Shown: positions 1,680 through 17,261 of the stretch, in pieces
Numbering within the stretch: the first letter of the stretch is position 1
How the letters are laid out: every line of letters begins with the position of its first letter
Virus record (IMG/VR): IMGVR_UViG_3300042521_002634
Span: 1-64,000 of that record
DNA: 64,000 nucleotides
Source of the DNA: a virus
Direction: 5' to 3' (one strand)
Position numbers and translations under genes: made by a program
Notes under the pieces: model-generated
Databases searched by the model: none
Seen by the model: the letters and a program-made list of their open reading frames with translations, nothing else
Told to the model about the DNA's origin: nothing

Positions 1680-1696
1680 ATGTGATTCCTTTTCTT

Positions 1697-1795
1697 CTAG
1701 TCGTCGTCTTCTACGCCTCTGTCACCGCAGAACGGGTCGACAGGAGCTGGTGACTTACAAGCACACGGATTGTTGCGTTTTCCAATAATTGTCAT
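1697..1795 (-). CDS. 32-aa Cys-containing peptide MTIIGKRNNPCACKSPAPVDPFCGDRGVEDDD
   Basis: ATG at 1795 with an AAGGA SD. Fills the gap between the SSB terminator and the glycosyltransferase. Confidence 0.45.
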   Translation of the reverse strand: MTIIGKRNNPCACKSPAPVDPFCGDRGVEDDD

Positions 1796-1815
1796 AAGTT
1801 CCTTAAGTAGATTAG

Positions 1816-1855
1816 TGTAAGACGCCGCTCCACCGAAGCAGAGCGACGTCTTACG
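1816..1855 (-). terminator. hairpin after the SSB gene
   Basis: GTAAGACG(C)CGCTC...GAGCG(A)CGTCTTAC inverted repeat. Confidence 0.55.
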
Positions 1856-1871
1856 GGCGTTCCAAGTAAAC

Positions 1872-2417
1872 TTAGAACGGTGCGGTTGGCGCTGGCGCCG
1901 GAGCAGCTGCGGCCGCAGCAGCAGGCGCTGCGGCTGGCGCCGGAGCTGGTGCTGGTGCTGGTGCTGGAGCAGGCGCTGGTGCTGGTGCAGCAGCTGCTGC
2001 GGTTGCAGCAGCCTGAACAGCGTAGTACGCCTTAATTTCGTTCTTTTTCTGACCTTGCCATGTTCGTGATCCAATCTGCGCGCGGAACGATCGACCTTTG
2101 AGGATCTGTTCAATCTGAGCGTTTGTAGGACTCTGAGCAAAGTACTCCCGGTTAAGACCAAGAGAATTCATCTTGCGAAAGAAGATTCCAAGTGCTGTCG
2201 GGTTATCGGTTGAAACAACGAGGTTGTCCCAAACAAGGCGCTTTGCGTGCGCTCCAGTCTGGACTTGCGCCTTTACGGCGAACATCGTCTTTCCTGTTTG
2301 TGTTACTTTTGCTACAGCTTCCACGATCTGAAGATCGTAGTCACCGTCCGGAAGCGGGTCGTAATTTCCGGTGTCTGCTGCCTCTTTGACGAGGTCTCCC
2401 CAGTTTAGGGTATTCAT
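1872..2417 (-). CDS. single-stranded DNA-binding protein (DUF669-like)
   Basis: YDPLPDGDYDLQIVEA N-terminus, (AP)n linker, C-terminal PF tip; follows Sak4. Confidence 0.75.
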   Translation of the reverse strand: MNTLNWGDLVKEAADTGNYDPLPDGDYDLQIVEAVAKVTQTGKTMFAVKAQVQTGAHAKRLVWDNLVVSTDNPTALGIFFRKMNSLGLNREYFAQSPTNAQIEQILKGRSFRAQIGSRTWQGQKKNEIKAYYAVQAAATAAAAAPAPAPAPAPAPAPAPAPAAAPAAAAAAAPAPAPTAPF

Positions 2418-2447
2418 TGTCTGTTACCTATCTTTCTGTCTCGTGGT

Positions 2448-3206
2448 TTATTTTTTTGCTTTTGGTTTTTCACCAAACACAATATCAAGCATTCGCTCAA
2501 TACCGAGGTTTTCCTGCTCGACAATTTTGCCGAGTCTACCTTGAACGCGTTCTCCAGCTTCAAACTGGTTAGTTCGCTCAACGTACATACGACGCGCCTT
2601 GTATGGAGGCTGCGTAGGGTCGCCTGTTGAGAATTCTTCAACAGTAATCGCTCCTAAGATGTCGTAGAAATACGGCGCCTGAATTGCAAGTTGACCTTGC
2701 AAGTACGGACGATAACGACCGTCCTGGCTTTGACGTGCCATTGCGGTGAGGACTACAGCCTCGAGCGGAGCAGTCGGGTGCATCGTCAAGTCACGAAGGT
2801 CACGCAATAGCGCTCCCATGTGACGAAGAAGTTCGCCCCATTGCTGCATCTGCATTTGATTTGTACCGGCAATGTTATCCATGCACTTAACTTGTAGTTC
2901 AGACACGGAGTCAATAATCAGTGACTTAAACTGGTGCTTACCCAGCTGCAGCCACTGATACGCCTTAAGCACTGTGTCATACTCTGTCACGTTTACAACG
3001 CATGTATCCCAAGTTCCGTCTGCTACTGGTGGTTCTTCCCGTAGCGGATCCCAGTACTTAACATTGATTGGCAAGAATCTATGTCCGCCTTCAACGTCAA
3101 GCATGAGACGAGGATACGGTGCTGTCACCGCAAATGTTGATTTACCTACCTTAGACTCTCCATAGACCATCATGGTCAAGGAGCGTTGTACTTCACCCAT
3201 TGTCAC
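2448..3206 (-). CDS. sak4: Sak4-like AAA ATPase / ssDNA annealing protein
   Basis: YGESKVGKST Walker A, LDVEGG, IIDSVSE Walker B; Cas4-Sak4-SSB synteny. Confidence 0.8.
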   Translation of the reverse strand: MTMGEVQRSLTMMVYGESKVGKSTFAVTAPYPRLMLDVEGGHRFLPINVKYWDPLREEPPVADGTWDTCVVNVTEYDTVLKAYQWLQLGKHQFKSLIIDSVSELQVKCMDNIAGTNQMQMQQWGELLRHMGALLRDLRDLTMHPTAPLEAVVLTAMARQSQDGRYRPYLQGQLAIQAPYFYDILGAITVEEFSTGDPTQPPYKARRMYVERTNQFEAGERVQGRLGKIVEQENLGIERMLDIVFGEKPKAKK

Positions 3207-4153
3207 TCACTTCCTTTTATGTCTCTTGATTTGTAGTATTCATACGGGTCGGCGACCTCGTACATCTCAGTGATTGCGTTCTCGGCGGCGCTTCCGTCGT
3301 CGATAAGCGGACAAACACTAAAGAACTGACACTTCCATTTGCAGTCACGACTAGGCCGTGGGTATGCAACGAAGTGATGATCGTGGCCTTCATCAAGCGA
3401 CTTTTTTGTCTCCATCAAGTCTTTGATTGTTCCATGAATTCTTGCCCAAAATGATCGCAATGCGAACACATTATGGCGAACTTCCATTTGTTCGTAGAAC
3501 GGTGGCCTTGCGTTTGCTGAACGCTTGACCTTTTTTAGCATTGTAAAGATGCCACCTTCACTTCGTTCTCCTTCCTTATTTTGCGCTGTCTCCAGCATCA
3601 TATAAGTAAGGATCTGCTCATTCATGTGAGCCATTGAGGTGAAGTCTGTGAATGATCCGCCGACTGTCTTAAAGTCACGGAACATACGCACACCGTCACC
3701 GCGACGACGAACACGCATGTCAAGTTTACCTTGAAGTTCGACTGCACCGTCAAACAAAGGCATGCTGATTATTTCTTCAGTTGAGATCATTTCAAGCTCG
3801 GCATCAATACCGTTCTCTTCTACCCATTGAAGATATCCTTCAAGCATGATGCGCCCAAGTTCGGCTTCACTGTCAAGGTCTACAGTGTCACGGTAACTGT
3901 CGATAAGAGCCTGCTTGTCACGGTCTACGAACATCGAGTGCGCCTCAAGCAGCGGAATACCTTGGCCGTAGTACGCGTCAAGCGCGTTGTGAATTCTAGA
4001 ACCAAGCGCCAGCGCGCCGGTCATGTTTTGAGTCTTTGGTTGAAGACGTCGGTAATACGCCAACCACCACTTGCGTCTGCAGTCTTTGTATGTCTGCAGC
4101 TCGCTGTTAGAGAGCTTGTACGGCATGTTTACTTGTGTGACTGTATCTGTCAT
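3203..4153 (-). CDS. Cas4/RecB-like PD-(D/E)XK exonuclease
   Basis: LSNSELQTYKDCRRKW, GSRIH, GKLD...DFKT, and C-terminal C-x3-C-x5-C Fe-S cysteines. Confidence 0.85.
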   Translation of the reverse strand: MTDTVTQVNMPYKLSNSELQTYKDCRRKWWLAYYRRLQPKTQNMTGALALGSRIHNALDAYYGQGIPLLEAHSMFVDRDKQALIDSYRDTVDLDSEAELGRIMLEGYLQWVEENGIDAELEMISTEEIISMPLFDGAVELQGKLDMRVRRRGDGVRMFRDFKTVGGSFTDFTSMAHMNEQILTYMMLETAQNKEGERSEGGIFTMLKKVKRSANARPPFYEQMEVRHNVFALRSFWARIHGTIKDLMETKKSLDEGHDHHFVAYPRPSRDCKWKCQFFSVCPLIDDGSAAENAITEMYEVADPYEYYKSRDIKGSE

Positions 4154-5943
4154 TACGCTTTCTCCGATCGCAACATATCTAGAAGTTGCGCCTTATCTCG
4201 AACGATTTGTTCGAAGTTGTCTGCTTTTGTATCTAGCACTTGAATTACACGCTCTTCAATGGTGTCCTCTGTTACGTAGTCCATAATGACGATGCTGTCA
4301 TGAATTTCACTACCAATGCGGTGTACTCTGTCCATTGCTTGTTTATGATCAATAAGTGACCATGGACGTTGAAGCATGACAAGTCGTCTAGCCGCGGTAA
4401 GAGTGATGCCAACGCCTCCAGCCTGAGCAGTGAACAATATCCATTTAATTTTTCCAGACTGGAAGTCATCAACGGCTTGCTGGCGTTCGTCCTCATTTTG
4501 CGCGCCTGTAATTAACCCGTGAGGTATCTTTTTAGCAGTCATCTGAGCACTTAGTAGTTCAATAAGTTGGCGAGATACTGCGCATACAGCGACAGAATCA
4601 TCACCAAAGTCTCCATTTGATATGTCGTCCATAAGCGCGTCTACCTTGCACGATGGCTCTGCAAGAAGCGCTTTTATTTCACCAGTGTCTTCGTCAATAT
4701 CTAACTGCGCGTACGAGCTGGCAAACTGCAGAAGACGTATAGTCTGAGTTAGCGGACTTGGCGCTGTAAGAGCGTCTCCACCTTCAAGTTCAGCAATCAT
4801 AAGATCACGCATTTGCTGATACGCTTTCTTTTGCTTAGTAGACATCTCAACATCACGACGCTCTGTGACTACTGGCGGAAGCCACTGCAACACCTTAGCT
4901 TTGAGCATTCGACGCATTCTTGGATTTATCGCCGCGTAAAATTCTTCTTCCATATGAGGTTTTACGCCAAGAACCATCATTCCGCCAAACGCATTCAACA
5001 TGGTGTTAATCATGCGATCAACCCAGCGAGTCTTGCTTGGCCATTCTTCAGGCGATAGCCAATGAAGAATCGGCCAAAGATCTAAAACGTTATTGGCGAT
5101 AGGTGTACCTGTAAGAGCAAATCTAAATTTTGCGCTGCCTGTTGCCGCCCAAAGTGCACGCGTCTGTTTTGATTTAGGCTCTTTGGAGCGGTGAATTTCG
5201 TCGGCAATGACTGAGTTAAAGTCAATTTTATTAAGTTCACGAATATGAACTTCACAGCGGTTTTCTGTGACCTTTTCATCATGGCCGCCGCAGTCACGGC
5301 AGCGTGCTAACGATACCGAGCCATAAGAAGCCAGCCGTGAGTGACCTCGAAGAGATTCCCAGTTAATGACAAATACGTCAACATCTTCCTCAAACTGTTT
5401 CCGTCGTTGCATTGCTGAACCTTTGACTACCTGCACTTTTACATCTGGCCACCATCTGGCGAATTCTCTTTCCCAGTTCTTTTTAAGCGTGTTTGGGCAA
5501 ACAACAAGCGCGGGGAACACTTTTTCACCGCGGCTGCGAAGTTCTTTAAGCGCCGTTATTGCTTGTGCTGTTTTCCCAAGACCAGGCTCATCAGCAAGAA
5601 GTGCCCTGTGTGCCGTAGCAAGAAACTGAACACCAGCGCGTTGGTGAGGAAACAGCGTGTCTTCACCGTCAATTGCTTCAACAGAACGAAGAGCGTTAGC
5701 AGGCGCAACGCGTGTCAATAGCTCATTTGTCGCCCAGTCAGTTAACCGCTGGCCAATGACAAGTTCTGACTTAAAAGTTGATCGCAACGCTAGACACGTT
5801 GCCCAGCCGACAGGTGTTTTCCACGTTTGCTCGCTAGACGACCACGTAGCGCCTGGGATACTCTTGCACAGCTCTTTGTAACGCCATTCAGCGTTAATAA
5901 TTATGTATCTACCCGTGCTATCGAGTTCTGCTTGTACTGTCAC
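4153..5943 (-). CDS. SNF2-family helicase
   Basis: LADEPGLGKT, DEIH, TGTP, QAMDRVHRIG; CxxC insertion. Confidence 0.9.
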   Translation of the reverse strand: MTVQAELDSTGRYIIINAEWRYKELCKSIPGATWSSSEQTWKTPVGWATCLALRSTFKSELVIGQRLTDWATNELLTRVAPANALRSVEAIDGEDTLFPHQRAGVQFLATAHRALLADEPGLGKTAQAITALKELRSRGEKVFPALVVCPNTLKKNWEREFARWWPDVKVQVVKGSAMQRRKQFEEDVDVFVINWESLRGHSRLASYGSVSLARCRDCGGHDEKVTENRCEVHIRELNKIDFNSVIADEIHRSKEPKSKQTRALWAATGSAKFRFALTGTPIANNVLDLWPILHWLSPEEWPSKTRWVDRMINTMLNAFGGMMVLGVKPHMEEEFYAAINPRMRRMLKAKVLQWLPPVVTERRDVEMSTKQKKAYQQMRDLMIAELEGGDALTAPSPLTQTIRLLQFASSYAQLDIDEDTGEIKALLAEPSCKVDALMDDISNGDFGDDSVAVCAVSRQLIELLSAQMTAKKIPHGLITGAQNEDERQQAVDDFQSGKIKWILFTAQAGGVGITLTAARRLVMLQRPWSLIDHKQAMDRVHRIGSEIHDSIVIMDYVTEDTIEERVIQVLDTKADNFEQIVRDKAQLLDMLRSEKA

Positions 5944-6033: not shown

Positions 6034-6504
6034 CTATCTAAGCAATTTCATTGGTTTCCAACCAGTCTTTACTAAGCGAAGAAGCCCGTGTCTTATTGCG
6101 TCAAGAGCGTGACCTTCTCCACCTCTATGCCAGTACTCTAGCTTTTTAAGAGCGTCGTTAGAGAACATCTTCTTCGCGTCTGATGGAGATTGAAAAATCA
6201 ATTCATCAGGGTCAATTCCGTTGTCAAGCATAATGTACTTCAAAATACCAATCTGCTCCAAACTATACGGAGCTTGCGAGTTCCTTACTGTCTGCGCATT
6301 TATAATAAACCTCTCGCATACGATCTCTACTTTAGAGTCTGTTGCTTTAGCATATTTAAGCGTTTCGTAGATAGGCAAGTGGTACTCTTTCATTTGGTAC
6401 TCACCAGACTTCTCAAGCACAGGCTCTCCGCCTGGCGTAATTGAGAAAGTGCAGATACCGCTTGCTTTACCCGGATCTACTGAAAGAATAATTCTGTCGC
6501 CCAT
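6034..6504 (-). CDS. RuvC-like Holliday junction resolvase
   Basis: ILSVDPGKASG, VCERF, HALDAIRH; start overlaps the pol stop (TAATG). Confidence 0.75.
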   Translation of the reverse strand: MGDRIILSVDPGKASGICTFSITPGGEPVLEKSGEYQMKEYHLPIYETLKYAKATDSKVEIVCERFIINAQTVRNSQAPYSLEQIGILKYIMLDNGIDPDELIFQSPSDAKKMFSNDALKKLEYWHRGGEGHALDAIRHGLLRLVKTGWKPMKLLR

Positions 6505-8327
6505 TAGTACTTTTCTCCCCATGTTTCAAGTGGACCATCAATACCTGCAGTTAGCGGAACTGCCCAGCCGTCTGAAGTTGTCATGCACTGCTTTACAATT
6601 CTTTTTATTTCTTCAGCGTCTTTTCGCGGCGCGTTTAGCACGATTTCGTCGTGCACTGGAACGATCAACAGTTCTGTCAAGTCTGCTTGGTCGAGTTTCA
6701 CAAGATTTGATTTGAACACTTCAGCAGCTCCACCTTGAATAAGGTAATTGACAAGAGTGTATACACGATCTTCGTCGCACGGCAGTCGACGGCCTGTCCA
6801 TGTGTAGACATAACCTTGACCTTCGTCGCGGAGCCGACGCATTCCGGCGTCTTCAACTTGCTTTTGAAAGTACGACATTCCAGGAAAACGCAGGTCAAAA
6901 GCGTCAGATACAGCGCGCATTTGCGGTTCTGCAACGCCTGCTGTAATCGCCTGTTTTGCAACTCCAGCGCCATAGAGTCTTCCGTAGACCGTGCCTTTTA
7001 TCAGTCCACGACGCTTGTCTGAGCGTTCCATTGTCGGGTCTGCATATATTTCACGACCAATCTCAGTAAAGGGGTCAGACCCGATTGAGTCAGCGCGGTT
7101 AAACAGATCAATCAAATTGTTGTCATTTGAAAGACTTGCGAACATTCTAAATTCGACTTGGTCTAAGTCTGATGTAACAATTACGTGATTTTCATCTTTT
7201 GGAAGAAACGCCCTGCGCACTACATCGTCGCCTTTTGGCAGTGTCTGCAGCGCCGGGTTTTGTATTGACATGCGTGAAGTTCTAGCACCTAGAGTCTTCA
7301 CAGACGGGTGAACAAACCCATTGACATTTTCGCTTAAAAAGTTAGAAAAATAGGTATTGGCAAGTTTGTCGGCCTTGCGCTGTTTTAGAACTATGTCAGC
7401 AAGTTGCTTGACTTCATCGTTGCCGTTGATTTTAAGAATCTTCAATTGGTCTTTAGTGCACGATTTCTGCCCTGTTGGCGTAAACTCTGTGATCTCTGCT
7501 CCGATACTCTCGAACAAGCGAACTAGTTGTTGATTGCTAGTGATTGACGCGCCACCGTACGTCTGCTTGGCCCAGGTTTTTACTGACTCGGTGTACGTCG
7601 TAAGTTCTTCGTATTTCTTTTTTGAGTACTCAAGATCTACTCGTGCGCCATTCAGCTCCATACGAGTGACGATGCGACGAGTCTGCATTTCAAGTTCATA
7701 AGGCTTGTGGTACGGCCCATCTGGACCACACTGCTTATAGAACATTTCCCACAGCCGTGTAGTTAGCACGCAGTCTAGCGCGCCGTACGACCAGTAAGGT
7801 TTGAAGTCTACTGGAACTGTTCCCCAAGTCCAGCCGTTCTTAGCAAGTTCTTCATCAAGTGTGTTTTGTAGAGTTACAGCGCGGCCATCGACGTGCAAAG
7901 CTGCAAGTCGTTTAAGCGCTCCTGAGCCTAGTGGATCGATGATGTGCGCCATAATCATCGTGTCGTGTGCGCGGTGCCACGGCATCTTCCAACGCGATTG
8001 AACATCAAACCAACGAGCTTCAAACGCAATGTTGTGACAGATCAGCGGTCCGTCAAATTTATCCATTGCTTCATAGAAAACACCTGCCCATTCTCCCCAT
8101 GGAATTGACCAACCTTGTTCTCCATCACCAACCTGCACTAAGCGCAGTCGACCATGCCATGGCGAGAACGCGTGCTCTCTAGGATTGCCAGGCAGTTCGC
8201 CAGTTTCTGTGTCTACAGACAGCGCGTCGTATGGGCGACGCTGGCTAAGCCAGTGTATGAAATCACTTGCCTTTTGTGAGCTATCAACCAAATGAAGCTG
8301 CACGTTTGCAAGATTATCAGTCGACAT
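6504..8327 (-). CDS. polA: family A DNA polymerase with 3'-5' exonuclease
   Basis: Exo motifs DTET, HNIAFE, YGALD; motif A DLDQVEFR; motif B RRGLIKGTVYGRLYG; motif C VHDE. Confidence 0.95.
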   Translation of the reverse strand: MSTDNLANVQLHLVDSSQKASDFIHWLSQRRPYDALSVDTETGELPGNPREHAFSPWHGRLRLVQVGDGEQGWSIPWGEWAGVFYEAMDKFDGPLICHNIAFEARWFDVQSRWKMPWHRAHDTMIMAHIIDPLGSGALKRLAALHVDGRAVTLQNTLDEELAKNGWTWGTVPVDFKPYWSYGALDCVLTTRLWEMFYKQCGPDGPYHKPYELEMQTRRIVTRMELNGARVDLEYSKKKYEELTTYTESVKTWAKQTYGGASITSNQQLVRLFESIGAEITEFTPTGQKSCTKDQLKILKINGNDEVKQLADIVLKQRKADKLANTYFSNFLSENVNGFVHPSVKTLGARTSRMSIQNPALQTLPKGDDVVRRAFLPKDENHVIVTSDLDQVEFRMFASLSNDNNLIDLFNRADSIGSDPFTEIGREIYADPTMERSDKRRGLIKGTVYGRLYGAGVAKQAITAGVAEPQMRAVSDAFDLRFPGMSYFQKQVEDAGMRRLRDEGQGYVYTWTGRRLPCDEDRVYTLVNYLIQGGAAEVFKSNLVKLDQADLTELLIVPVHDEIVLNAPRKDAEEIKRIVKQCMTTSDGWAVPLTAGIDGPLETWGEKY

Positions 8328-8799
8328 CTTTATCCTTGACTAGCGTGACAACTAAACTGCACTTTTCCATAAACGCGACGACATCATATGGTCTACGATG
8401 CATGTCAGCCTTGCGCAGTCTAGACACTACTCTGCGTATTCCTGAGTTTGAAATAAGCTTAGCGCACTGCATGCACGGCACACTTGTTATGTAGATAGTT
8501 CCATTCTCGCTTCGTGATCTATCAACGTACAGAAGCGCGTTTGCCTCTGCGTGAACAGCAGGGCAAGCATCATATAAGTTGTCAAGTGGGCTTAAACCTT
8601 TAGCGCGATCGCACCAGTTGATGCAGTCGCCTGACTCTGGCCAACTAGCGGCTGGTCCATTGTACCCAGTGGCAACAATGTGTTGATCATGAGAAACGAT
8701 CACTGCGCCCATCTGCGCCCGCGTGCATCGAGATCGCGCAGACACGATGTCAGCGACGGACAACCATGTATCGTCCCAAGACAACCTTTTAAGCGTCAT
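8317..8799 (-). CDS. dCMP deaminase
   Basis: ATGYNG, HAEANA, PCMQC zinc-deaminase motifs. Confidence 0.92.
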   Translation of the reverse strand: MTLKRLSWDDTWLSVADIVSARSRCTRAQMGAVIVSHDQHIVATGYNGPAASWPESGDCINWCDRAKGLSPLDNLYDACPAVHAEANALLYVDRSRSENGTIYITSVPCMQCAKLISNSGIRRVVSRLRKADMHRRPYDVVAFMEKCSLVVTLVKDKDVD

Positions 8800-8979
8800 T
8801 TACTCTTCTTCCTTGTTGTTTTCTTCGATTATAGAGCCAACTGTGCCGGTCAGTATTTTTGCAACAAGTTCTAACGCCTCTTTGCGACTGAATCCTGCAC
8901 GTCTAAACTCTGAAAACACTTCATGCATCTGTACAGCAACGCTTCTAAGTGGGCTTGGATAGTCGTCGTCTTCTTTCAC
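8800..8979 (-). CDS. 59-aa hypothetical protein (..EFRRAGFSRKEALELV..)
   Basis: Not in the ORF track. GTG start overlaps the upstream TGA and the ORF exactly fills the gap. Confidence 0.6.
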   Translation of the reverse strand: MKEDDDYPSPLRSVAVQMHEVFSEFRRAGFSRKEALELVAKILTGTVGSIIEENNKEEE

Positions 8980-9839
8980 TTGCTCTCCTTTTTGAAGTTC
9001 TTCTCTATAGCCGAAATCATCGCGTCAGTGTACCACTTTTGATCTGGAGTTAGCCGTTGACGGATGTACTCATCAAACACCGCGTCAAGCGCATGACGGG
9101 CTTTTGCCTCTACTTGCGTCCATGAAGACCCAGTTATTGGCGGTATCGATTCAATAGAGCTTCGCTCTACATGATGTAGATCTTCAGCTACTTCGTAGTG
9201 CTGCTCGTACAAATGCAACGAGCCGACATGATGTCCGTACGTCCCTGGCTCAATTCCAAGTATAGACGCCATGGCGATTTGTACTCTAGTAAACTGAAAA
9301 AAGTCATATGCAGCGCCAAGCCAGACGTCATTGGATCTCATGTAGACGCTCATGTTAAGTCTGTTATTGCGAATTCTAAACTGATGAAGAATAGTGCAAG
9401 GGTAGTCGCGTTTGTTTGATTGCAAGTCTAATTCTGGGTCCCAGATAGTTACAACTGCTTGCCGCGTACTAGGATCGTTTTTAAGTCTGTCTAGCGCCTT
9501 AGCGTACTGTGTGTGCGTGCGTAGACCGTACGCGCCGTGAAACAGTCCGTTGTCTTCTGCAAAATTTTTGAACTGCGGACCGACGGCTATGACTGTCTTT
9601 GGATAGCTTACGCCAGCAATTAGCTGACAAGCTTCGACTGCGCCAATGCCAGGCACCGCGCCGCGGCTGACGCCAACAGGCAGAGTATTATAGACGTTAT
9701 CAATGAAGACAGTGGCATCTTCAATTTCTTTAGTTTGCTGCCCGCGCGGAGCAACTTCTTTGCCATACTTAAGAACCCAGTTAACAAGATCGACGTAGCC
9801 GTTCACTCCGTCTTCAACACGAATTACCGTAGTGTCCAT
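8976..9839 (-). CDS. thymidylate synthase-family enzyme of dCMP type (dCMP hydroxymethylase-like)
   Basis: RQAV, YPC catalytic Cys, MRSNDVWLGAAYD with Asp at the ThyA Asn177 position, GSLHLYE. Confidence 0.8.
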   Translation of the reverse strand: MDTTVIRVEDGVNGYVDLVNWVLKYGKEVAPRGQQTKEIEDATVFIDNVYNTLPVGVSRGAVPGIGAVEACQLIAGVSYPKTVIAVGPQFKNFAEDNGLFHGAYGLRTHTQYAKALDRLKNDPSTRQAVVTIWDPELDLQSNKRDYPCTILHQFRIRNNRLNMSVYMRSNDVWLGAAYDFFQFTRVQIAMASILGIEPGTYGHHVGSLHLYEQHYEVAEDLHHVERSSIESIPPITGSSWTQVEAKARHALDAVFDEYIRQRLTPDQKWYTDAMISAIEKNFKKESK

Positions 9840-10834
9840 GACTCTTCTGCTCTCCCTTCAGCCGCTGCTGCTATAGCAGCGCCATACGCTTTTTTGTCGT
9901 AGTGATGAAATCTTTTGACATACTGCGGATGCGGCATGACTGTCATGTTTCTGGATTCAATTCCAGACAGCAGCAGTCCTTTTTCTGCCATGCGCCCTAG
10001 AGCTACTATTCTCGGGCGGCCTAAGGCTTCCCATAAACTGAACAGACGTGAGCCGTAGAACTCGTTCGCGTTTACTATGCCGTATTGTTTCCAAACTGTA
10101 TGCGGAATGCTACTAAGTAAAAAGTCACCAGAGTTACTGTTCACTGGCATAAAAGGAAGAATAGTCTCATTTCCATACTTTAAAGTTACGTTGCGCTGAT
10201 CACCTACTATAAGCGCAGTAGGGTTTGGAGCTCCTATATATTCCGGGTACTCAGCAAGTTTTGCTGAAGCCTCAGCGATGCGTTCAGCCTTGTTGATTAT
10301 CTCCGTAGCAATCTCACCTACGTCATTAAAATTATATGGATGCGGTTGAATTTTACCAGCAAGGCGCGCGGTAGCGCCAGCTCCAAACGAATAGTATTCA
10401 AGAACTTGTGCCAGCTCATCTGTGTTGACAAAATCATCGCCGCGAGAATTGATTCTTTCAATTAGCACTTCTAGTGGCTGATACAGCCAAAATTGTGCAA
10501 CTCCACGTGACATAAGAAATAGCTCTACCCAGCGCCAACCAGATCGACCGAGAAGCCCGTACGAGTCGTTGCACGTATGAGGGCGCTTGATAGGTGCGTA
10601 GGTAACTTCTCCCCAGTGCCATCGGTCTGCAATCGCAAGACGGGACGTCCAGTCTTGCTTTTCAATTGAAATCGCGTATTCATTTAGCACCCAACGGAGC
10701 GTCTCTTCTTCTGGCTTACCTTTATGAAATTCCGTGACGCTTCTCTCAGGGAATCTTGCCTGAATCTGCGACTTAATTTCAGCAATAAGTGACGACTTAC
10801 CAGAGCCGTCAGCGCCTTCAATCACTATAAACAT
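9824..10834 (-). CDS. dNMP kinase fused to a C-terminal uracil-DNA-glycosylase-superfamily domain
   Basis: N-term IEGADGSGKS, DRW, RINSRGD. C-term G-x-P-N-P-x-ALIVGDQ...PF...SGDFL...VNA...PRIVALGRMAE...PHPQY. Confidence 0.72.
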   Translation of the reverse strand: MFIVIEGADGSGKSSLIAEIKSQIQARFPERSVTEFHKGKPEEETLRWVLNEYAISIEKQDWTSRLAIADRWHWGEVTYAPIKRPHTCNDSYGLLGRSGWRWVELFLMSRGVAQFWLYQPLEVLIERINSRGDDFVNTDELAQVLEYYSFGAGATARLAGKIQPHPYNFNDVGEIATEIINKAERIAEASAKLAEYPEYIGAPNPTALIVGDQRNVTLKYGNETILPFMPVNSNSGDFLLSSIPHTVWKQYGIVNANEFYGSRLFSLWEALGRPRIVALGRMAEKGLLLSGIESRNMTVMPHPQYVKRFHHYDKKAYGAAIAAAAEGRAEESWTLR

Positions 10835-10880: not shown

Positions 10881-11351
10881 CTAAGGAATGACTTCTACCT
10901 TATAAATCTTTTCTATTCCTTTGTCTAGAGAGGCTGCGTCATCCAATAGACGCTGAGCAACGTTTGTTAAATAGCGAGCACCGCCGTTATCGTATTTGTA
11001 CAATGCTTCAAGAACAGCGTTAGGATCTTCGCTAACTTGAGCCCAGTATCTGTCTTTTTCTGGAAATATAAGGCCTGCTTCAAATGATGGACGACAGTCT
11101 TCACAGGGTATCATTCCGTCTTTAGCGTGCTCAGGTTTTAGCTCCTGTAAACCGTATCGTTTGACTAAATGACAAGCAGCGCCGTGGTACACAACGGATA
11201 CTCCAATTCGAGAAAGAACATAAGAGCCGTTCTCAGTTTTGTAAAGCGCGAACTCAATCCAACGTGTTGAACCGCTTCTCCACGAGGAAGATTTGCCTAA
11301 GAGCGTACCACTAAACTGAAGTGTTCTTGAGCCGTCTTTTACTTGAATCAT
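10881..11351 (-). CDS. hypothetical protein with a putative Zn-binding H/C motif
   Basis: 156-aa ORF with its own -10-like element upstream; H..C...CEDC. Confidence 0.7.
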   Translation of the reverse strand: MIQVKDGSRTLQFSGTLLGKSSSWRSGSTRWIEFALYKTENGSYVLSRIGVSVVYHGAACHLVKRYGLQELKPEHAKDGMIPCEDCRPSFEAGLIFPEKDRYWAQVSEDPNAVLEALYKYDNGGARYLTNVAQRLLDDAASLDKGIEKIYKVEVIP

Positions 11352-11457: not shown

Positions 11458-12828
11458 CTATGTTCCGTTTTTTGTGCCGCCTAGGTGGTTGTACCACTTT
11501 ACGGCGGCGTATCGCATTCCGCTCGCTACCGGCTCGACACAGTGCATGTTCTCAAAGCCCGAGCTAAACACGACAATCTTGCCAGCGCCGCGAGTAATCC
11601 TGACGTTTTTATGAGTAAACACTAAATCTCCACCAGTGTAGCCGTCATTTAGAAAAGCAGAGACAGAGACAACTCTAGGAAACTCTAAGCAGTCATCAAC
11701 GTGATTATGGAAAGAGCCACCGCGCTCGTATCTTGTAAGCTGCCAGTTTGTCGACTGCAGCTCTCGTATGCTGTACATTTTTCTAAAGTCTTTGATGATT
11801 GGAGCCATGCCAGCTTCAAGACTTTCGTATAGTCTACGTATTGGGTCATGAACATGACACGACAGCTGGGTACTATTGATAAACTTAACGTAGCAGGTTC
11901 TAGCTTGGTAGTTAACAGTCGGATCTCGCTCCTCACTAAGCACCTGGGCAGGCTTCCAAAGCTTGTAGCACGAATTCTGCGCAAGACCCTTAAGAGTTTG
12001 AGCAGACTGTTTTGATATTTGGTATTGCACTATTCCTGGAGCAATCACAGTCTTTTCTTCAACAGACATGTCAACAAGTTCTGGCTCGTCGTCTGTGTAC
12101 TCTCCAAGAATTTTGTCGTAAAGTGACAAAACGCCAGAGTAGTCATGACACGAGCAGACAGGTTGATTGATCGGTGCGTCGGGCATTGGAATGTACCGGT
12201 TTCTGTTAAAAAACCTAATGTCGCCGTCACTTCCATACCGCCCTATGTCATTTCCTCGAGTTTTCTTTTGAATCCAATGATCAGGCCGAGTAAAATGCAT
12301 AAACACCACAGTAGTGTGCACATCAGAGCGCCTAGAAGGATATGCAGGACGCGCGTGCGTATGCTGCTGCCCTGCAAAGATTATTCCTTCATTTTCATTT
12401 TGCTCGTATTCTTTTTCTTCTACAATTAGGTTCCACTTTGCGGTATTTTCAATTGTTAAATCAACTGTTGTCTGTGTTCCATTTTGATCTACGTGCTCCC
12501 ATAAGTGCGGAATACAGCCATTGATTGACTGATACCTGACAACAAAGAAATACGCTTTAAGCAAGGTGTCATCATTGAATACTTCTCTAGCTTTTTTCAA
12601 AGAAAATTCTTCAATGTCCTTAGAAAAACTGATTGGAGATTCCCATCGTCCCAGCATCGTATGGTAGTAGCTAGGGCCGTCTGGTCCGAGATTGAGGTCG
12701 TTTACGCTTTTCTTAACACGAGAAAACATTTCGTCTGGGAAGAATGATTTAATTACTACAGGTTCGCTGATTAGCGGATTTGGAAGCTCAAATTCAATTT
12801 TTCCATTTCGCATATCACCACTTGCCAA
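11458..12828 (-). CDS. tandem 2OG-Fe(II) oxygenase (C-terminal prolyl-4-hydroxylase-like domain)
   Basis: Domain 1: LWEHVD...IIFAGQQHTHAR. Domain 2: RYERGGSFHNHVD..RVVSVSAFLNDGYTGGDLVF..MHCVEPVASGMRY. Confidence 0.85.
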   Translation of the reverse strand: MASGDMRNGKIEFELPNPLISEPVVIKSFFPDEMFSRVKKSVNDLNLGPDGPSYYHTMLGRWESPISFSKDIEEFSLKKAREVFNDDTLLKAYFFVVRYQSINGCIPHLWEHVDQNGTQTTVDLTIENTAKWNLIVEEKEYEQNENEGIIFAGQQHTHARPAYPSRRSDVHTTVVFMHFTRPDHWIQKKTRGNDIGRYGSDGDIRFFNRNRYIPMPDAPINQPVCSCHDYSGVLSLYDKILGEYTDDEPELVDMSVEEKTVIAPGIVQYQISKQSAQTLKGLAQNSCYKLWKPAQVLSEERDPTVNYQARTCYVKFINSTQLSCHVHDPIRRLYESLEAGMAPIIKDFRKMYSIRELQSTNWQLTRYERGGSFHNHVDDCLEFPRVVSVSAFLNDGYTGGDLVFTHKNVRITRGAGKIVVFSSGFENMHCVEPVASGMRYAAVKWYNHLGGTKNGT

Positions 12829-13051
12829 GCGGGCACTTTGCGTTTAGTAGTCGTGTTTTTAGATTCATAAAACAACCGCACTCAAGACACTGCTTAGTGA
12901 CGCTTAAAAAGCGCTCGCAGCCTTGACACGTAGTGTATCGTGCTGCTGCAAGCTCTTCGCTAGATCTGGGAGCGTTTCGATTGATTAAATCTAGTGGAGT
13001 AACTCCGCCATTTTTTTCTTTAAACAGTTGCCAAGGAGTTTTTTCAGACAT
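12815..13051 (-). CDS. small Cys-rich protein (DUF6171-like)
   Basis: R...CxxC...QCLECGCF..KT....KCPLGKW. Confidence 0.7.
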   Translation of the reverse strand: MSEKTPWQLFKEKNGGVTPLDLINRNAPRSSEELAAARYTTCQGCERFLSVTKQCLECGCFMNLKTRLLNAKCPLGKW

Positions 13052-13436
13052 ATTGTCCACTTCCTGCGTATCTAACTGTTTCTCCGTTGCGAATTGTGGT
13101 TACGTAAAATCCGTATTCGTCGTGGCGCCAGCCAGCACCAACGTGTTTTCCATTTTCAAGCGTAAGTTTAATGATTAACGGACTGCTCAGTAGTATTGCC
13201 GCAAGCATCTCACTTACAGTAGCCTCAACTGCACCAGCAGAAGAAGTAATTACAACAGCGCCAGGCTGGTCAACTGACGCTACGATGCTGGGCGAGTTTA
13301 GCAAATAGTTTTCGGCAAAAGACGGCTGAAAAGACTTTGTATACACAACTTCATTGTCAATCACAAATGCAATTGCAATGCCAGGATAGCCATCTCTTTC
13401 GGGGCTAAATGTAATGTCTGTTTCGGTTAAAATCAT
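13044..13436 (-). CDS. hypothetical tail-fibre-associated protein
   Basis: 130-aa ORF coupled to its neighbours; C-terminal VGAGWRHD..GF. Confidence 0.65.
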   Translation of the reverse strand: MILTETDITFSPERDGYPGIAIAFVIDNEVVYTKSFQPSFAENYLLNSPSIVASVDQPGAVVITSSAGAVEATVSEMLAAILLSSPLIIKLTLENGKHVGAGWRHDEYGFYVTTIRNGETVRYAGSGQYV

Positions 13437-13438
13437 AT

Positions 13439-13912
13439 TTATGCTCCGCCCGAACCGCTTATCAACTTAGATTTTGCGTATTTATTTGCAAATCCTGCAC
13501 TTGCTGGAGTCATTTCAATATTGGTCCAAGCATCTTGATATGGGAAGCCTTGTCCAATCTCTTCTTCTCGTTGACTTGTAATAAAATCTGCCAACCTTGT
13601 CGCATATCCTTGACGTTGATAATTTGGGTGAGTAATAATAAACCACGGACGCTGTACGCCATTTTCATCCACGTAGCCTGCGTGTAAACAAATTAAATAG
13701 CCATTGTCATCTCTGAACAATGTGTATCTAACTGATTTGATGGTTTCTGAATTGCCCCACTTAGGCGACCTTACTTCTTTAATCCGCTGCGAATAACCCT
13801 TGTTGTTGAGGTCGATTTCGCCAAATAAATTGACCATATCATCCCATAGTGTTGTAACCAATTCTTCGCTGACAATTGGGGCTATATCTGACCACGCATC
13901 ATTTGTTGTCAT
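13439..13912 (-). CDS. GNAT-family acetyltransferase
   Basis: FIITHPNYQRQGYATRL acetyl-CoA motif A; AGGAG SD before the ATG at 13912. Confidence 0.7.
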   Translation of the reverse strand: MTTNDAWSDIAPIVSEELVTTLWDDMVNLFGEIDLNNKGYSQRIKEVRSPKWGNSETIKSVRYTLFRDDNGYLICLHAGYVDENGVQRPWFIITHPNYQRQGYATRLADFITSQREEEIGQGFPYQDAWTNIEMTPASAGFANKYAKSKLISGSGGA

Positions 13913-13999
13913 CGTAAGCACTCCTTTTTTCTTCAACTAATTCAAGGCTTACCCAATTATAACTAAACAACCACTCATCCAAGGCAATTATCGATGGTT

Positions 14000-15286
14000 C
14001 TACTGACACGAGTACACACCCTTCACGCCAACGCAAACGCCACAACATGGACCAATGTCGCCACAATCTGGACAAGGAGGTGTAACTGGTGGAGTAACAG
14101 GAGGTGTGACTGGAGGTGTGACTGGAGGTGTAACTGGTGGAGTAACAGGAGGTGTGACTGGAGGTGTGACTGGAGGTGTGACTGGAGGTGTGCATATCGC
14201 GCCCCAACCTGGTTCAATACATTGACCTGTTGTTACACAGCCATCTTCACCAAGTGAAACTTGTAGTTCCGAGCAATATCTGTACTCGCCGGGAATATCC
14301 GGTGGAACCACAGGTGGTGTCACAGGTGGTGTCACAGGTGGTGTCACAGGTGGTGTCACAGGTGGTGTCACAGGTGGTGTGCTAGATCCGCAGCCGGCGA
14401 TGCAGTACTTTATCGTCTCAGACTCACCGTACATATAAGCGAATAAGGTGCCGTCATCCGATCCAGTCGTGTCAGTCGGGTCAAAGTAAAATGAGATAGC
14501 GTACGGAGTGCCGGTCTGGCTTTCTTCAACGATAAACGGACGAAAATAGTATATGCCCTTTGAGTCAGTGCTGGCGTTGTCGGCGGGATCGCGTACTTCT
14601 ATGTTCTGCGCAACTACTTCGCCGTTTCCAATATTAACTCCTGCCGCAGATATTGCGCCGGTCCCGTCATTTCCTGACGGGTCTAAGATCATCGCTTGGT
14701 CGCCAGGATTGGTAGGAACAGTTCGAAGACTGCCGTCACCGTACACCGGGTCGAACACCCAGTCGCCAATCTGACCGGTAGTGGCGATCACTTCAATGCC
14801 GTTAAGTATACCTACGGTAATGTTGCCCGCGTCAAGGTTAGACACTGTGATCACACTTGCATCAATTGTTCCGGCTGTTATCTTGTTAGCGCTAATGCTA
14901 GCAAGTGCGTTGTCTCCTAGTTCAAATCCACCCCACGCGCTGCCTGTCCATCGATAAAACCTATTGTCATCATCAGTATCAAACCACAGGTCGCCGGTAG
15001 TGTGACTTGATCCCGATGGAGCTGTTGTTTGACGATATACCTTATTTTTTCCGTCGGCTGTAGTCTGCGCCGCGTCGGCCGCGTCCTGTGCGTCCTCAAT
15101 TGATCCTGAAACCTCAGTGCTGAGAATTGAAACTGTTACAGCGCCTTCTTCTAGTTTAGGTTCTCCTACGCTTCTGTCAGCGACTTTTCTAACAGACGGG
15201 CGTCGCGCCATACCGCGAACTCGACGATCAAGCCGGCTAACGTAGTTGCCAAGTCTGCGAAGACTTCTACGACGGTTACTCGCCAC
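14000..15286 (-). CDS. tail fibre / receptor-binding protein with TPPV repeats and Cys-rich tip
   Basis: AQTTADGKNKVY, GDLWFDTDD, ISANKITAGTIDA tail-fibre motifs; GTG at 15286 with a GGAGG SD. Confidence 0.75.
   Translation of the reverse strand: MASNRRRSLRRLGNYVSRLDRRVRGMARRPSVRKVADRSVGEPKLEEGAVTVSILSTEVSGSIEDAQDAADAAQTTADGKNKVYRQTTAPSGSSHTTGDLWFDTDDDNRFYRWTGSAWGGFELGDNALASISANKITAGTIDASVITVSNLDAGNITVGILNGIEVIATTGQIGDWVFDPVYGDGSLRTVPTNPGDQAMILDPSGNDGTGAISAAGVNIGNGEVVAQNIEVRDPADNASTDSKGIYYFRPFIVEESQTGTPYAISFYFDPTDTTGSDDGTLFAYMYGESETIKYCIAGCGSSTPPVTPPVTPPVTPPVTPPVTPPVVPPDIPGEYRYCSELQVSLGEDGCVTTGQCIEPGWGAICTPPVTPPVTPPVTPPVTPPVTPPVTPPVTPPVTPPVTPPCPDCGDIGPCCGVCVGVKGVYSCQ
14075..14191. repeat. 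degenerate 12-bp tandem array encoding (TPPV)9-TPP
   Basis: Units aactggtggagt / aacaggaggtgt / gactggaggtgt arranged ABCC-ABCCC. Confidence 0.95.
14309..14380. repeat. six perfect 12-bp repeats cacaggtggtgt encoding (TPPV)6
   Basis: Read directly from the sequence. Confidence 0.95.
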
Positions 15287-17261
15287 GACGATCAACCTCC
15301 CACTCTGTGACAAGCTCTAGGCTAACTTGCTCTGGAAAAGAAGGGGTATCTGGCACGCTTACCTTGATTGAATCGATTTTTCTAACAAGAACAGTGTCGC
15401 GCACCTCAAGGTCACTTGATAAGCGTTGACGAATAAACTCGTCGTTGGCGATGATCGAGCACCAGTCACCTGGAAAGTACGTTCCGACGACAGGGTTAAG
15501 CGAGCCGTTCACAGATATAGTTATATCTGCAACAGGCGGACGAAACTCGTTTAAGTAACGCGCAGCATGATCGTACAAAATCTGCTCGTCGCTTATGTCT
15601 TGTTTTTCTTCTTCTTGATCTAATAGCGGCCAGCCTGCTGCAAGAAGATCCGTAGCTGATGCCGCAGCGTACGGCTGGCTAATATCATCACCAAGATCCG
15701 GAATATTGCCGACTACAAAAAATCTTGTGGCTGCATTTTCTGAAGACTCTTTGACGTCTATGTCGTTTATATTTCCTGGAAACTCAAATACAAGTTGGTC
15801 AGCGCCAAATCTGCTAATCGGCGAGACCTCGCCTGGCGCAGGAGGATTTGGAAAGTTGATTGGAATAAACACAAGTGTGCGTGTAAAAGATCCGGTAGTC
15901 GGGTCGTAGTCGCAGTCAACACGGTACTCAAAACCGTCAATTGAGTCGGAATATTCGTCTAGTTCTTCACCAACTGACTTAAGCAAATACCCACGGTACG
16001 TCGCGTTTTCTAGGTTTTTGTCGGCGTACCCTAAATCTGAGTAGTCAAGCCCAATATCAGCATTTGCTGGAAATTCTCCATAAGTACTTGACACAGCTGC
16101 TCTAACAATAGTTGCAGTTCCACTTGCCGCTACAGACGCAATTTTGTTAAGAGCGTACGTACTATATGTAAACGTAGTAGCGGTCGGAACTGAAGCAACG
16201 CTATACATGCCGTTAAAAGTAATTTCATTCGCGCTAGTGCTGTCAACTCCAGCTACTGTGACGACGTTACCGACAGCTAGCCCGTGCGACGCAGAAGTTG
16301 TAAGAGTGGCTATTCCGGCAGTGTATGCTTTGTTAGTCACAGATAGAGTCACGTTAGACACTGCTGTTGAAGCAATGTTTGTTCCAGTAAGATCGTACGT
16401 AAACGACGTTGACGTAGGTATTGAAGATACTTCGTATGTGCCGTCTAACGTCGAGTCGACGTTTTCTACTTGAACTGTCTGGCCTATGATTAAATTATGC
16501 GCCGTAGACGTGGTTAACGTCACTACGTTGGACGACAATTGCTTGTTTGTGACAGTGTACCTGGTCGCAGTTGCAGGTTCAATTTCATCATTAGGGAACT
16601 CTATGTTTGTAAAATCAACAAGTGCGCTGTCGATTAGCTGTCGCATGTAGTCGTACGCATCGCTGCGCACGTACAGTGTGGTAAGAGTGTACGTTCCGTT
16701 TGGTATAGACGGAGCTGATACGTAAAAAACAGTGTCAGTAGGCGCTGGACTTGCTGCTACAACATAATAGCCATTGTACACAAAGTTGCCGACTTCATAA
16801 AATATAAGCCGAATGCTTGAGCCAACTGGGACTTCGTAGTTTCCATTTTCAATAGTTACCTGCGCAACTCCGCTCGTAACTACAACTGTCACTTCAAAGT
16901 CATGGGTGTACGTTTTCCAAATATTGCGATGGTAGAAGTAACTCGTCCACTCTGATCCATTTATTGTCATCACACGCTGTTTTGCGTTGTACGACCGACT
17001 CCAGATGATTCCACCCCAGACGCACACATTGTTTCTAACGACGTATATTGCAGTCTTGCCTGGCATCGTGCTCTCGTAAAGATTCAACGCCGCGTTGCCG
17101 TCAATTACTGGAATCTTGCCACTAAAATCTCCAGCGCCTTTGATGGCTCGTTCGTAGCTTACGCTTTTAAGAGGTATTTCAGCAATTACCGAATTACTTA
17201 AGATGTCAGCGGTGAAGTATCGGTATACCGCTACGTTCTCATCGTAAAGTGGAGTTGCCAT
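15276..17261 (-). CDS. minor tail protein (Tal/hub-like) with inserted beta-repeat domains
   Basis: VWGGIIWSR hub motif; position after Dit; TLTT.AH.L..G..V.V repeats. Confidence 0.75.
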   Translation of the reverse strand: MATPLYDENVAVYRYFTADILSNSVIAEIPLKSVSYERAIKGAGDFSGKIPVIDGNAALNLYESTMPGKTAIYVVRNNVCVWGGIIWSRSYNAKQRVMTINGSEWTSYFYHRNIWKTYTHDFEVTVVVTSGVAQVTIENGNYEVPVGSSIRLIFYEVGNFVYNGYYVVAASPAPTDTVFYVSAPSIPNGTYTLTTLYVRSDAYDYMRQLIDSALVDFTNIEFPNDEIEPATATRYTVTNKQLSSNVVTLTTSTAHNLIIGQTVQVENVDSTLDGTYEVSSIPTSTSFTYDLTGTNIASTAVSNVTLSVTNKAYTAGIATLTTSASHGLAVGNVVTVAGVDSTSANEITFNGMYSVASVPTATTFTYSTYALNKIASVAASGTATIVRAAVSSTYGEFPANADIGLDYSDLGYADKNLENATYRGYLLKSVGEELDEYSDSIDGFEYRVDCDYDPTTGSFTRTLVFIPINFPNPPAPGEVSPISRFGADQLVFEFPGNINDIDVKESSENAATRFFVVGNIPDLGDDISQPYAAASATDLLAAGWPLLDQEEEKQDISDEQILYDHAARYLNEFRPPVADITISVNGSLNPVVGTYFPGDWCSIIANDEFIRQRLSSDLEVRDTVLVRKIDSIKVSVPDTPSFPEQVSLELVTEWEVDRRGE

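Follow-up and report, generated by a model that had tools for sequence, protein, structure and literature searches.

The hydroxymethylcytosine (hmC) pathway of phage T4 comprises a thymidylate synthase (TS)-fold enzyme of the Asp type (gp42), a deoxynucleoside monophosphate (dNMP) kinase (gp1), and a dCMP deaminase (Cd), together with the dCTPase gp56 and glucosyltransferases. Uracil-DNA glycosylases (UDGs), which rank with the most thoroughly studied DNA repair enzymes, are sorted into a handful of families by two motifs, A and B. In SP15-like phages with modified thymidine, an active UDG is fused to the family-A DNA polymerase (PolA) and excises dU ahead of the fork (PMC13697223). Here, we analyzed a 64,000-nucleotide stretch of viral DNA (herein the window), the first 64 kb of the 98-kb IMG/VR record IMGVR_UViG_3300042521_002634, which CheckV rates as 74% complete. 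A gene at positions 9824 to 10834 (minus strand) encodes a 336-residue protein (plus stop codon) that joins a nucleotide kinase to a UDG-superfamily domain; we consider it very probable that this is a real fusion lying inside a cytosine-modification cassette, and we rate it as a new domain architecture and a new UDG clade in a known type of pathway.

The protein is confirmed to have two domains, a P-loop kinase resembling YorR and thymidylate kinase at the N terminus and a UDG-superfamily domain at the C terminus. The full-length AlphaFold2 (AF2) model has a predicted local distance difference test score (pLDDT) of 93 and a predicted template modeling score (pTM) of 0.92; a long helix (residues 169 through 195) connects the two domains. 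All of the motifs that the initial annotation had quoted are present in the translation of the open reading frame (ORF): IGAPNPTALIVGDQRN, LPFMPVNSNSGDFLL, GIVNAN, RPRIVALGRMA, and MPHPQYVKRF. We checked the coordinates of GDQRN, HPQ, GADGSGKS, and the Phe228 to Asn255 stretch by translation. The same annotation knew of no characterized kinase-UDG fusion; our literature searches for such a fusion likewise gave nothing relevant and no paper describing one, and in GenBank and RefSeq the fusion carries the plain label “thymidylate kinase”.

Searching a set of 5.8 billion proteins returned 386 homologs of the fusion, those listed being mostly 330 to 340 residues long. With the C-terminal domain (C-domain) alone as the query, 586 cluster representatives (50% identity) were found, nearly all of them carrying it at the C terminus of a 300- to 340-residue protein, and 54 of 68 sampled members of this C-domain family match the kinase PHROG. 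Because the fusion is kept in 386 proteins and the C-domain in 586 cluster representatives, the pattern lies far beyond chance. The fusion family is essentially virus-only: the genomes of 185,579 prokaryotic species yielded two substantial kinase-UDG matches, both on short contigs of metagenome-assembled genomes (MAGs) and one of them cut at the contig end, plus two weaker partial matches (Streptococcus and Acinetobacter MAGs) that cover mainly or only the kinase part. Related-locus searches with two apparently stand-alone homologs returned nothing for one (P0168) and only fused genes, at most 44% identical, for the other (P0171). The nearest neighbors of the C-domain in the ESM Atlas are viral clusters of 122 to 137 residues, partly positive for the Pfam UDG family (PF03167).

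The C-domain (residues 190 through 336, 147 residues; positions 9827 to 10267, minus strand) is a minimal UDG fold that contains no cysteine. Modeled alone with a 68-sequence alignment, it gives a pLDDT of 94 and a β-α-β layout around a four-stranded parallel sheet (strands 207 through 211, 251 through 255, 275 through 279, and 297 through 300). When this model was compared with the PDB using Foldseek, ranks 1 to 40 were all UDG-superfamily proteins or UDG-domain fusions (best E 1.7e-5), among them UdgX, family-4 enzymes from Thermotoga, Thermus, and Sulfolobus, family 5, BdiUNG, the PolA of phage phiLo with its fused UDG, and TDG; MUG ranks slightly below the top 40. The Foldseek-independent VIA structural search of 48,161 chains agrees, with Z scores of 11.8 for a family-4 enzyme (1l9g), 11.6 for UdgX (6ail), 11.4 for family 5 (2d3y), 9.9 for the UDG domain of phiLo PolA (9qhs), 8.7 for SMUG1, and 8.5 for SMUG2; unrelated folds begin at ∼6. 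At the sequence level, PF03167 matches 16 of 43 homologous C-domains (best E 2.2e-5), one of which scores 18.4 bits against a cut-off of 24.3. The C-domain profile has family-4 UDG and UdgX as its top PDB matches at E 0.3 to 0.8, values that are not significant alone and were used for residue mapping. In the hidden Markov model alignment to 1ui0 and UdgX, GD falls on the GE of GEGPG, PF on PF, SG on AG, and Asn255 on the Asn of ITN.

Compared with family-4 UDGs (T. maritima 1l9g/1vk2, T. thermophilus 1ui0) and UdgX (M. smegmatis 6ail), the C-domain has the same fold over 131 aligned residues and the same order of elements: β-1 followed by a motif A of Gly and an acid, then PF and [S/A]G..L, an Asn after β-2, LG..A on β-3, and an HP-x motif B after β-4. 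The acid, Phe, Asn, and His are all conserved between the two groups. Motif A is GE[A/G]PG in family 4 and UdgX and G-[D/E]-x-R in the fusion family, whose motif B reads HPQ followed by [YFW]-x-R-R-F; the fusion family also differs in being kinase-attached and virus-specific. The C-domain is ∼45 residues shorter than the family-4 enzymes, the region between β-2 and β-3 is short, and, as there is no cysteine, the 4Fe-4S cluster of family 4 cannot be held. We file the domain closest to the family-4/UdgX/family-5 branch; because two features that define family 4 (motif A and the Fe-S cysteines) fail, it forms a separate clade of the superfamily. The initial annotation had anticipated much of this, proposing a UDG fold, a motif A (GDQRN) outside those of the described families it listed, absent Fe-S cysteines, and a new UDG clade; each of these proposals is borne out, with the homologs forming a virus-specific clade of their own.

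The predicted base pocket is built from four positions. In UDGs, this tetrad positions or activates a water, stacks the base, reads the O4 and N3-H of uracil, and stabilizes the O2 enolate. In the window protein the acid belongs to the motif A equivalent GDQRN (residues 211 through 215, positions 10190 to 10204, minus strand), just after strand β-1. The predicted base-stacking aromatic is Phe228 in LPFMP (positions 10151 to 10153, minus strand), which aligns to the PF of family-4 UDG and UdgX, and the predicted reader of a uracil-type O4/N3-H is Asn255 at the end of strand β-2 (GIVN; positions 10070 to 10072, minus strand). The His belongs to the motif B equivalent HPQ (residues 302 through 304, positions 9923 to 9931, minus strand), followed by Y-V-K-R-F. 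Conservation was counted in 68 diverse homologs. Gly211 is invariant (68/68), position 212 is Asp in 50 and Glu in 18, and Arg214 is kept in 59; Phe228, Pro230, and Gly280 are each present in all 68. The Asn255 position holds Asn in 66 and Asp in one, and motif B is nearly invariant (H302, P303, and R308 in 67 each, Q304 in 65). A few distant members come near the canonical family-4 motif A, such as the GERPG of locus L148. That the family keeps Asn here, and not Asp, speaks for a base of the uracil or thymine type and against cytosine. Among 142 fused proteins on viral contigs, the tetrad [D/E]-F-N-H is complete in 124.

The N-terminal domain (residues 1 to ∼189; positions 10268 to 10834, minus strand) is a P-loop dNMP-kinase domain of the YorR/thymidylate kinase (TMPK) kind. 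Its Walker A motif GADGSGKS (residues 7 through 14, positions 10793 to 10816, minus strand) has G7, D9, S11, G12, and K13 invariant in a 46-homolog alignment. In the same alignment the block DRWHWGE has a nearly invariant D70 followed by invariant residues R71 to E76; it opens with DRW (residues 70 through 72; positions 10619 to 10627, minus strand, computed from the ORF frame), which we take to be the counterpart of the TMPK motif DR[YHF]. R127 and the RGDD motif (R131-G-D) are also invariant or nearly so, and R127 and R131 may correspond to the lid arginines. PHROG 761 (“thymidylate kinase”) matches residues 1 through 183 (8.7e-17). The family profile finds YorR of the SPbeta prophage (PDB: 2axp, 3kb2) at 3.9e-21, with thymidylate kinases and PPK2 next; searched as a single sequence against solved structures, the window protein gave only a weak YorR match. 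Foldseek with the full-length model places 2axp first (template modeling score 0.77 on the target), followed by thymidylate kinases, deoxynucleoside kinases, and PPK2. The Pfam and NCBIfam TMPK models score under their cut-offs on the window kinase, which marks it as a relative of thymidylate kinase rather than an ortholog. YorR and the TMPKs are thus homologous to the N-terminal domain and have the P-loop and DRx-type motif in common with it; they differ in being single-domain proteins, and the predicted substrate of the fusion kinase is a 5-modified dCMP, not dTMP.

The last 16 nucleotides of the fusion gene overlap the start of the next gene, which encodes a TS-fold enzyme (positions 8976 to 9839, minus strand; Pfam Thymidylat_synt 1.2e-23) with Asp at the position of ThyA Asn177 (RSNDVWLGAAYD). 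Its best PDB relative is the CMP 5-hydroxymethylase MilA, and the enzyme is predicted to be a dCMP hydroxymethylase or methylase. A dCMP deaminase (positions 8317 to 8799, minus strand; Pfam dCMP_cyt_deam_1 9.9e-19) and a 607-residue PolA (positions 6504 to 8327, minus strand; recognized by synteny and by its ortholog in the complete relative DSL-LC01 [L164], annotated DNA polymerase I) follow. In transcription order, the whole minus-strand run reads: a 456-residue protein with a 2-oxoglutarate-Fe(II) oxygenase domain, a 156-residue protein (p156), the kinase-UDG, the TS homolog, a 59-residue ORF, the deaminase, PolA, a 162-residue ORF (annotated as a RuvC-like resolvase in DSL-LC01), an SNF2 helicase, a PD-(D/E)XK nuclease, an AAA_24 ATPase, a DUF669 protein, and a 401-residue candidate glycosyltransferase.

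This arrangement is strongly conserved. The order p156, kinase-UDG, TS is kept in all 81 close loci, and the deaminase and PolA follow in 77 of them. In distant lineages, where the kinase-UDG is 22 to 35% and PolA 25 to 40% identical, the order kinase-UDG, TS, deaminase, PolA, SNF2 helicase, nuclease, AAA_24 is held in most. The kinase gene lies directly upstream of the TS-fold gene wherever a TS was detected beside it, distant lineages included, and the Asn177-equivalent residue is Asp in 155 of 156 neighboring TS homologs, even at PolA identities as low as ∼25 to 35%. The initial annotation had suggested a test of co-occurrence with Asp-type TS and with genes resembling the T4 β-glucosyltransferase (BGT); the first link holds on these counts, and the second is loose. 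The 401-residue candidate glycosyltransferase (positions 474 to 1679, minus strand; listed together with positions 1 to 477, minus strand) has a homolog in 39 of the 54 close loci whose sequence extends to that point, and no homolog in any distant lineage or in AXL3, a cultured phage described below. It has no Pfam match and no PDB sequence match, its single match being the unannotated PHROG 14998, so that the label “BGT-like” is not confirmed. In DSL-LC01, positions 1285 to 4906 hold a glycosyltransferase after the replication module and then a UDP-galactopyranose mutase and a MazG-like pyrophosphohydrolase, which hints that the sugar on the modified base could be galactofuranose.

The cassette contains predicted counterparts of T4 gp42, gp1, and Cd. 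For the remaining T4 functions, the candidates are a pyrophosphohydrolase (MazG or PRA-PH type) in related phages, where T4 has the gp56 dCTPase, and candidate glycosyltransferases in relatives; a MazG-like NTP pyrophosphohydrolase is annotated in both DSL-LC01 and the Pseudoxanthomonas phage PW916. Synteny, the Asp-type TS, its MilA relative, and the DSL-LC01 genes together support a T4-like modified-cytosine pathway with the kinase in the gp1 role. The differences are that gp1 has no UDG domain and that the modified base of the fusion phages is predicted from their genes; to our knowledge, T4 gp1 also belongs to a different kinase lineage. Complex prediction with two copies of the TS homolog and the kinase-UDG returned no answer (score 0.00, mark 0.32) and was counted neither way. 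A search of the 74%-complete record for Pfam UDG, ThyX, T4 BGT, and endonuclease V found none of them; the BGT model failed on all control genomes too.

Using distant family members as queries in a phage collection, we located the fusion in two isolates, Stenotrophomonas phage AXL3 (gp29; NC_071036) and Pseudoxanthomonas phage PW916; the PW916 gene is unannotated. AXL3 gp29 (327 residues, annotated “thymidylate kinase”) has the P-loop and a C-domain with GEDFG, PF, VNA, LG, and HPQYWKRF, and it aligns to the C-domain profile with an hhalign probability of 98.6% (E 1e-15). It lies in a cassette (positions 6436 to 9636) with gp28, an Asp-type TS homolog (VPYD) annotated “thymidylate synthase”; gp27, a dCMP deaminase; and gp30, a PRA-PH/MazG-type pyrophosphohydrolase (Pfam PRA-PH match) annotated “hydrolase”. 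AXL3, whose host is Stenotrophomonas maltophilia D1585, is reported to encode a separate ThyX as well. Of 37 restriction enzymes tried on its DNA, only TasI and Tru1I, whose sites are A/T-only, are reported to cut; the other 35 all have G/C in their sites (PMC7504290). This resistance, together with the cassette, fits replacement of cytosine by the cassette, which probably explains why AXL3 DNA withstands all of the G/C-site enzymes tested. The paper describing AXL3 does not notice the fusion (PMC7504290); its location in two cultured phages, with a published restriction-resistance phenotype in AXL3, is new, as are the tally of intact, degenerate, and absent UDG domains and the distant members whose motif A approaches that of family 4.

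The two folds, the conserved motifs, the gene order, the restriction to viruses, and the presence of the cassette in a cultured phage with restriction-resistant DNA are observations. What the kinase phosphorylates, whether the C-domain is a glycosylase and for which base, and why the two are joined we infer as follows. We favor, at a probability of roughly 0.45, a modified-dCMP kinase fused to an active uracil-type DNA glycosylase that removes U and perhaps 5-hydroxymethyluracil (5hmU). The kinase domain would phosphorylate the 5-modified dCMP that the product of the next gene downstream, the Asp-type TS-fold enzyme, supplies, playing the role of gp1 in the T4 hmC pathway. The UDG domain is a minimal offshoot of the family-4/UdgX branch lacking Fe-S and keeps a complete uracil-type pocket (D212, F228, N255, H302); most probably it would flip uracil-type bases out of phage DNA and excise them. 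Its targets could be U, arising by dUTP misincorporation or cytosine deamination, and possibly 5hmU from deaminated modified cytosine. Such excision would keep the cytosine-modified genome clear of unmodified or miscoding pyrimidines, and the fusion would set the glycosylase beside the nucleotide-supply enzymes at the replication module. The PolA-UDG proteins of phiLo (9qhs; Z 9.9, rmsd 2.8) and YerA41 offer the closest parallel, being a UDG fold fused to a replication enzyme in modified-pyrimidine phages, with dU removal proposed to keep the modified genome uniform (PMC13697223). In those phages the partner is a polymerase and the modified base is thymidine; the present fusion has a nucleotide kinase as partner and belongs to a cytosine-type pathway, beside a PolA that has no UDG domain.

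Several observations weigh against this reading. The window C-domain itself has no Pfam (at E up to 0.1), PHROG, or NCBIfam match, and hence no Pfam UDG match. Neither a dUTPase nor MazG was found in the 98-kb record, which is 74% complete by CheckV. Many UDGs have a DNA-intercalating loop after the motif B His; in our model a helix comes directly after His302, and this, with the shorter domain, makes DNA binding putative. Glycosylase activity is a prediction for every family member, made from models and alignments, and the proposal leaves unexplained the choice of a nucleotide kinase as the partner of a repair enzyme. The pocket is degenerate or truncated in ∼18 of the 142 fused homologs; L119 and L124 are among these even though their PolA is ∼82% identical to that of the window, and L119 has GN, T, and D where the acid, Asn, and His are expected. 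Finally, ∼15 loci have a kinase-only gene (138 to 166 residues) beside the same Asp-type TS, so the domain can be dispensed with in some lineages. The degenerate and kinase-only forms make the domain accessory to the kinase-TS pair, not obligatory. It is under purifying selection in most lineages and dispensable in some, a pattern typical of a repair or sanitizing activity.

In L119, L124, L094, L100, L104, L122, L126, L129, and L130, whose replication modules are almost the same, the acid, Asn, or His is lost or the protein is truncated before motif B while the kinase fusion is kept, and the UDG-like domain appears to be decaying in place in those phages. The kinase-only loci (L134, L138 through L150, and L153 through L155) show neither a UDG-like ORF nor a detectable PolA in the flanking sequence retrieved. 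The UDG domain may go together with the PolA-type replication module, although a lineage effect could produce the same picture. The idea that the gene is split at kinase-only loci was rejected, there being no UDG-like ORF in flanks of up to 10 kb.

A second explanation has the domain work at the level of nucleotides. The C-domain might bind free dUMP or 5-hydroxymethyl-dUMP (hm-dUMP) arising from the adjacent dCMP deaminase and either hydrolyze it, as a sanitizer resembling DNPH1, or filter the substrate of the kinase; as a specificity or allosteric filter, it would keep the fused kinase from sending uracil-type nucleotides to the triphosphate pool. A common pool of small-molecule substrates would be the simplest reason for having a kinase as partner and not a polymerase or nuclease, and the full-length pTM of 0.92 suggests that the two domains are fixed relative to each other. 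The UdgX-dUMP complex 6ajp, one of the structural matches, shows that dUMP fits a UDG-type pocket, the conserved Arg214 and R307/R308 could bind a 5′-phosphate, the domain is small with a short motif B region, and a dCMP deaminase belongs to the same cassette. Those arginines suit contacts to the DNA backbone equally well, however, and the kinase-only phages retain the deaminase without any UDG domain; moreover, no member of the UDG superfamily is known to us to act on free nucleotides. We regard action on nucleotides as unlikely overall, though worth keeping in view.

A noncatalytic role draws on the ∼18 of 142 fused homologs, L119 for example, that retain the domain although its acid, Asn, or His is gone; in this role, a module descended from an ancestral UDG would tether the kinase at the fork by binding bases or DNA, or would serve as a structural or oligomerization domain. 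Precedents exist: vaccinia D4, whose structure is among the VIA matches, is a UDG serving as a polymerase processivity subunit (PMC10253040), and UdgX, a UDG relative, binds uracil-DNA tightly instead of turning it over (PMC4787834). Nevertheless, retention of all four pocket residues in 124 of 142 proteins, across PolA divergence down to ∼25 to 35% identity, would be difficult to account for if base binding or catalysis were not under selection, and the kinase-only forms indicate that the kinase does not need the UDG domain. We hold a purely noncatalytic module to be about as unlikely as action on nucleotides; that some lineages have lost or degraded the domain leaves room for both.

A bolder version of the clean-up idea would have the C-domain found a virus-only UDG family tied to nucleotide supply, a 5hmU-specific glycosylase or hydrolase (acting on DNA or on hm-dUMP) that proofreads the modified-pyrimidine pool; we hold this to be a speculative possibility, with the odds well against it. 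SMUG1 removes 5hmU from DNA and DNPH1 hydrolyzes hm-dUMP; a phage that hydroxymethylates cytosine and also has a deaminase might need clean-up of both kinds. Both are functional analogies: SMUG1 (family-3 UDG, structural match Z 8.7, motif GMNPG) is less similar to the C-domain than families 4 and 5 are and is not kinase-fused, and DNPH1, also not kinase-fused, has an unrelated fold. If the proposal were true, coupling to the kinase would let modified cytosine alone into phage DNA and keep deaminated by-products out, and the protein would be the first UDG-fold enzyme working within a nucleotide-biosynthetic machine.

Phage P-loop kinases that phosphorylate 5hmU in DNA exist, and fusion to a fold that binds DNA bases would suit such an enzyme, with the UDG fold as its DNA-binding or base-flipping module; the phiLo paper mentions a “5-hydroxymethyl-uridine DNA kinase” (PMC13697223). 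In Foldseek and profile searches of solved structures, the best matches found for our kinase domain are all nucleotide kinases (YorR, TMPK, deoxynucleoside kinases) and it has the DRW motif, the kinase-only versions occupy the same place beside TS, the TS partner is of the cytosine type rather than a dUMP hydroxymethylase, and a base occupying the UDG pocket would be out of reach of the kinase site; a DNA-level kinase is therefore highly improbable. The initial annotation had named hmU removal, nucleotide sanitizing, and discrimination of host from phage DNA as candidate activities, the last of which is disfavored. Cytosine excision by engineered UNG needs the change of Asn to Asp at the base-reading position. 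A glycosylase that attacks or marks host DNA with unmodified cytosine, discriminating it from phage DNA, is accordingly disfavored by the base-reading residue (Asn in 66 of 68, Asp in one) and by loss of the domain in lineages that keep the pathway, and has very little probability in our estimate even though the cassette is predicted to replace cytosine, so that such an activity would spare the phage, and motif A is unusual.

Directly upstream of the fusion gene, p156 (positions 10881 to 11351, minus strand) is present in 81 of 81 close loci. It has no Pfam or PHROG match, and the ESM Atlas gave unnamed viral clusters only. The protein is ∼65 to 80% identical across close loci and occurs in several distant lineages as well; it displays an H...C / C..C pattern (HGAAC, CEDC) that could bind zinc. 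Beyond it, between the tail fiber and the replication module, positions 11458 to 13936 (minus strand) encode the 456-residue oxygenase, an 81-residue DUF6171-like Cys protein, a 130-residue protein, and a GNAT-like protein. This block is missing from most relatives (12 of 81 close loci have the oxygenase) and resembles a variable insertion more than a component of the nucleotide cassette. A 437-residue protein at positions 14000 to 15313 (minus strand) ends in two long TPPV repeat runs, with Cys-rich segments between and after them; at the matching position, DSL-LC01 has an annotated minor structural protein. Outside the window, the same record encodes a 266-residue protein of the Fpg/Nei family at ∼86.9 kb (86915 to 87157, minus strand; H2TH 4.4e-23). 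The Fpg/Nei family has apurinic/apyrimidinic (AP)-lyase activity, so this protein could process abasic sites. DSL-LC01 encodes an Fpg/Nei-family protein and a pyrimidine-dimer glycosylase; these lake phages thus carry several base-excision enzymes.

The C-domain represents a large UDG clade with a new motif A, no Fe-S cluster, and a fixed fusion partner of a kind not previously described, inside a cytosine-replacement cassette. The cultured phages AXL3 and PW916, with the known resistance of AXL3 DNA, make the question of its function directly testable. A compact glycosylase with a useful specificity, for instance for 5hmU, could serve epigenetic sequencing chemistry. Our results suggest that the annotations “thymidylate synthase” and “thymidylate kinase” in the genomes of these cultured phages need revising. 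For the phages themselves, an activity of the C-domain would show how those with modified cytosine handle the uracil-type by-products of their own nucleotide metabolism.

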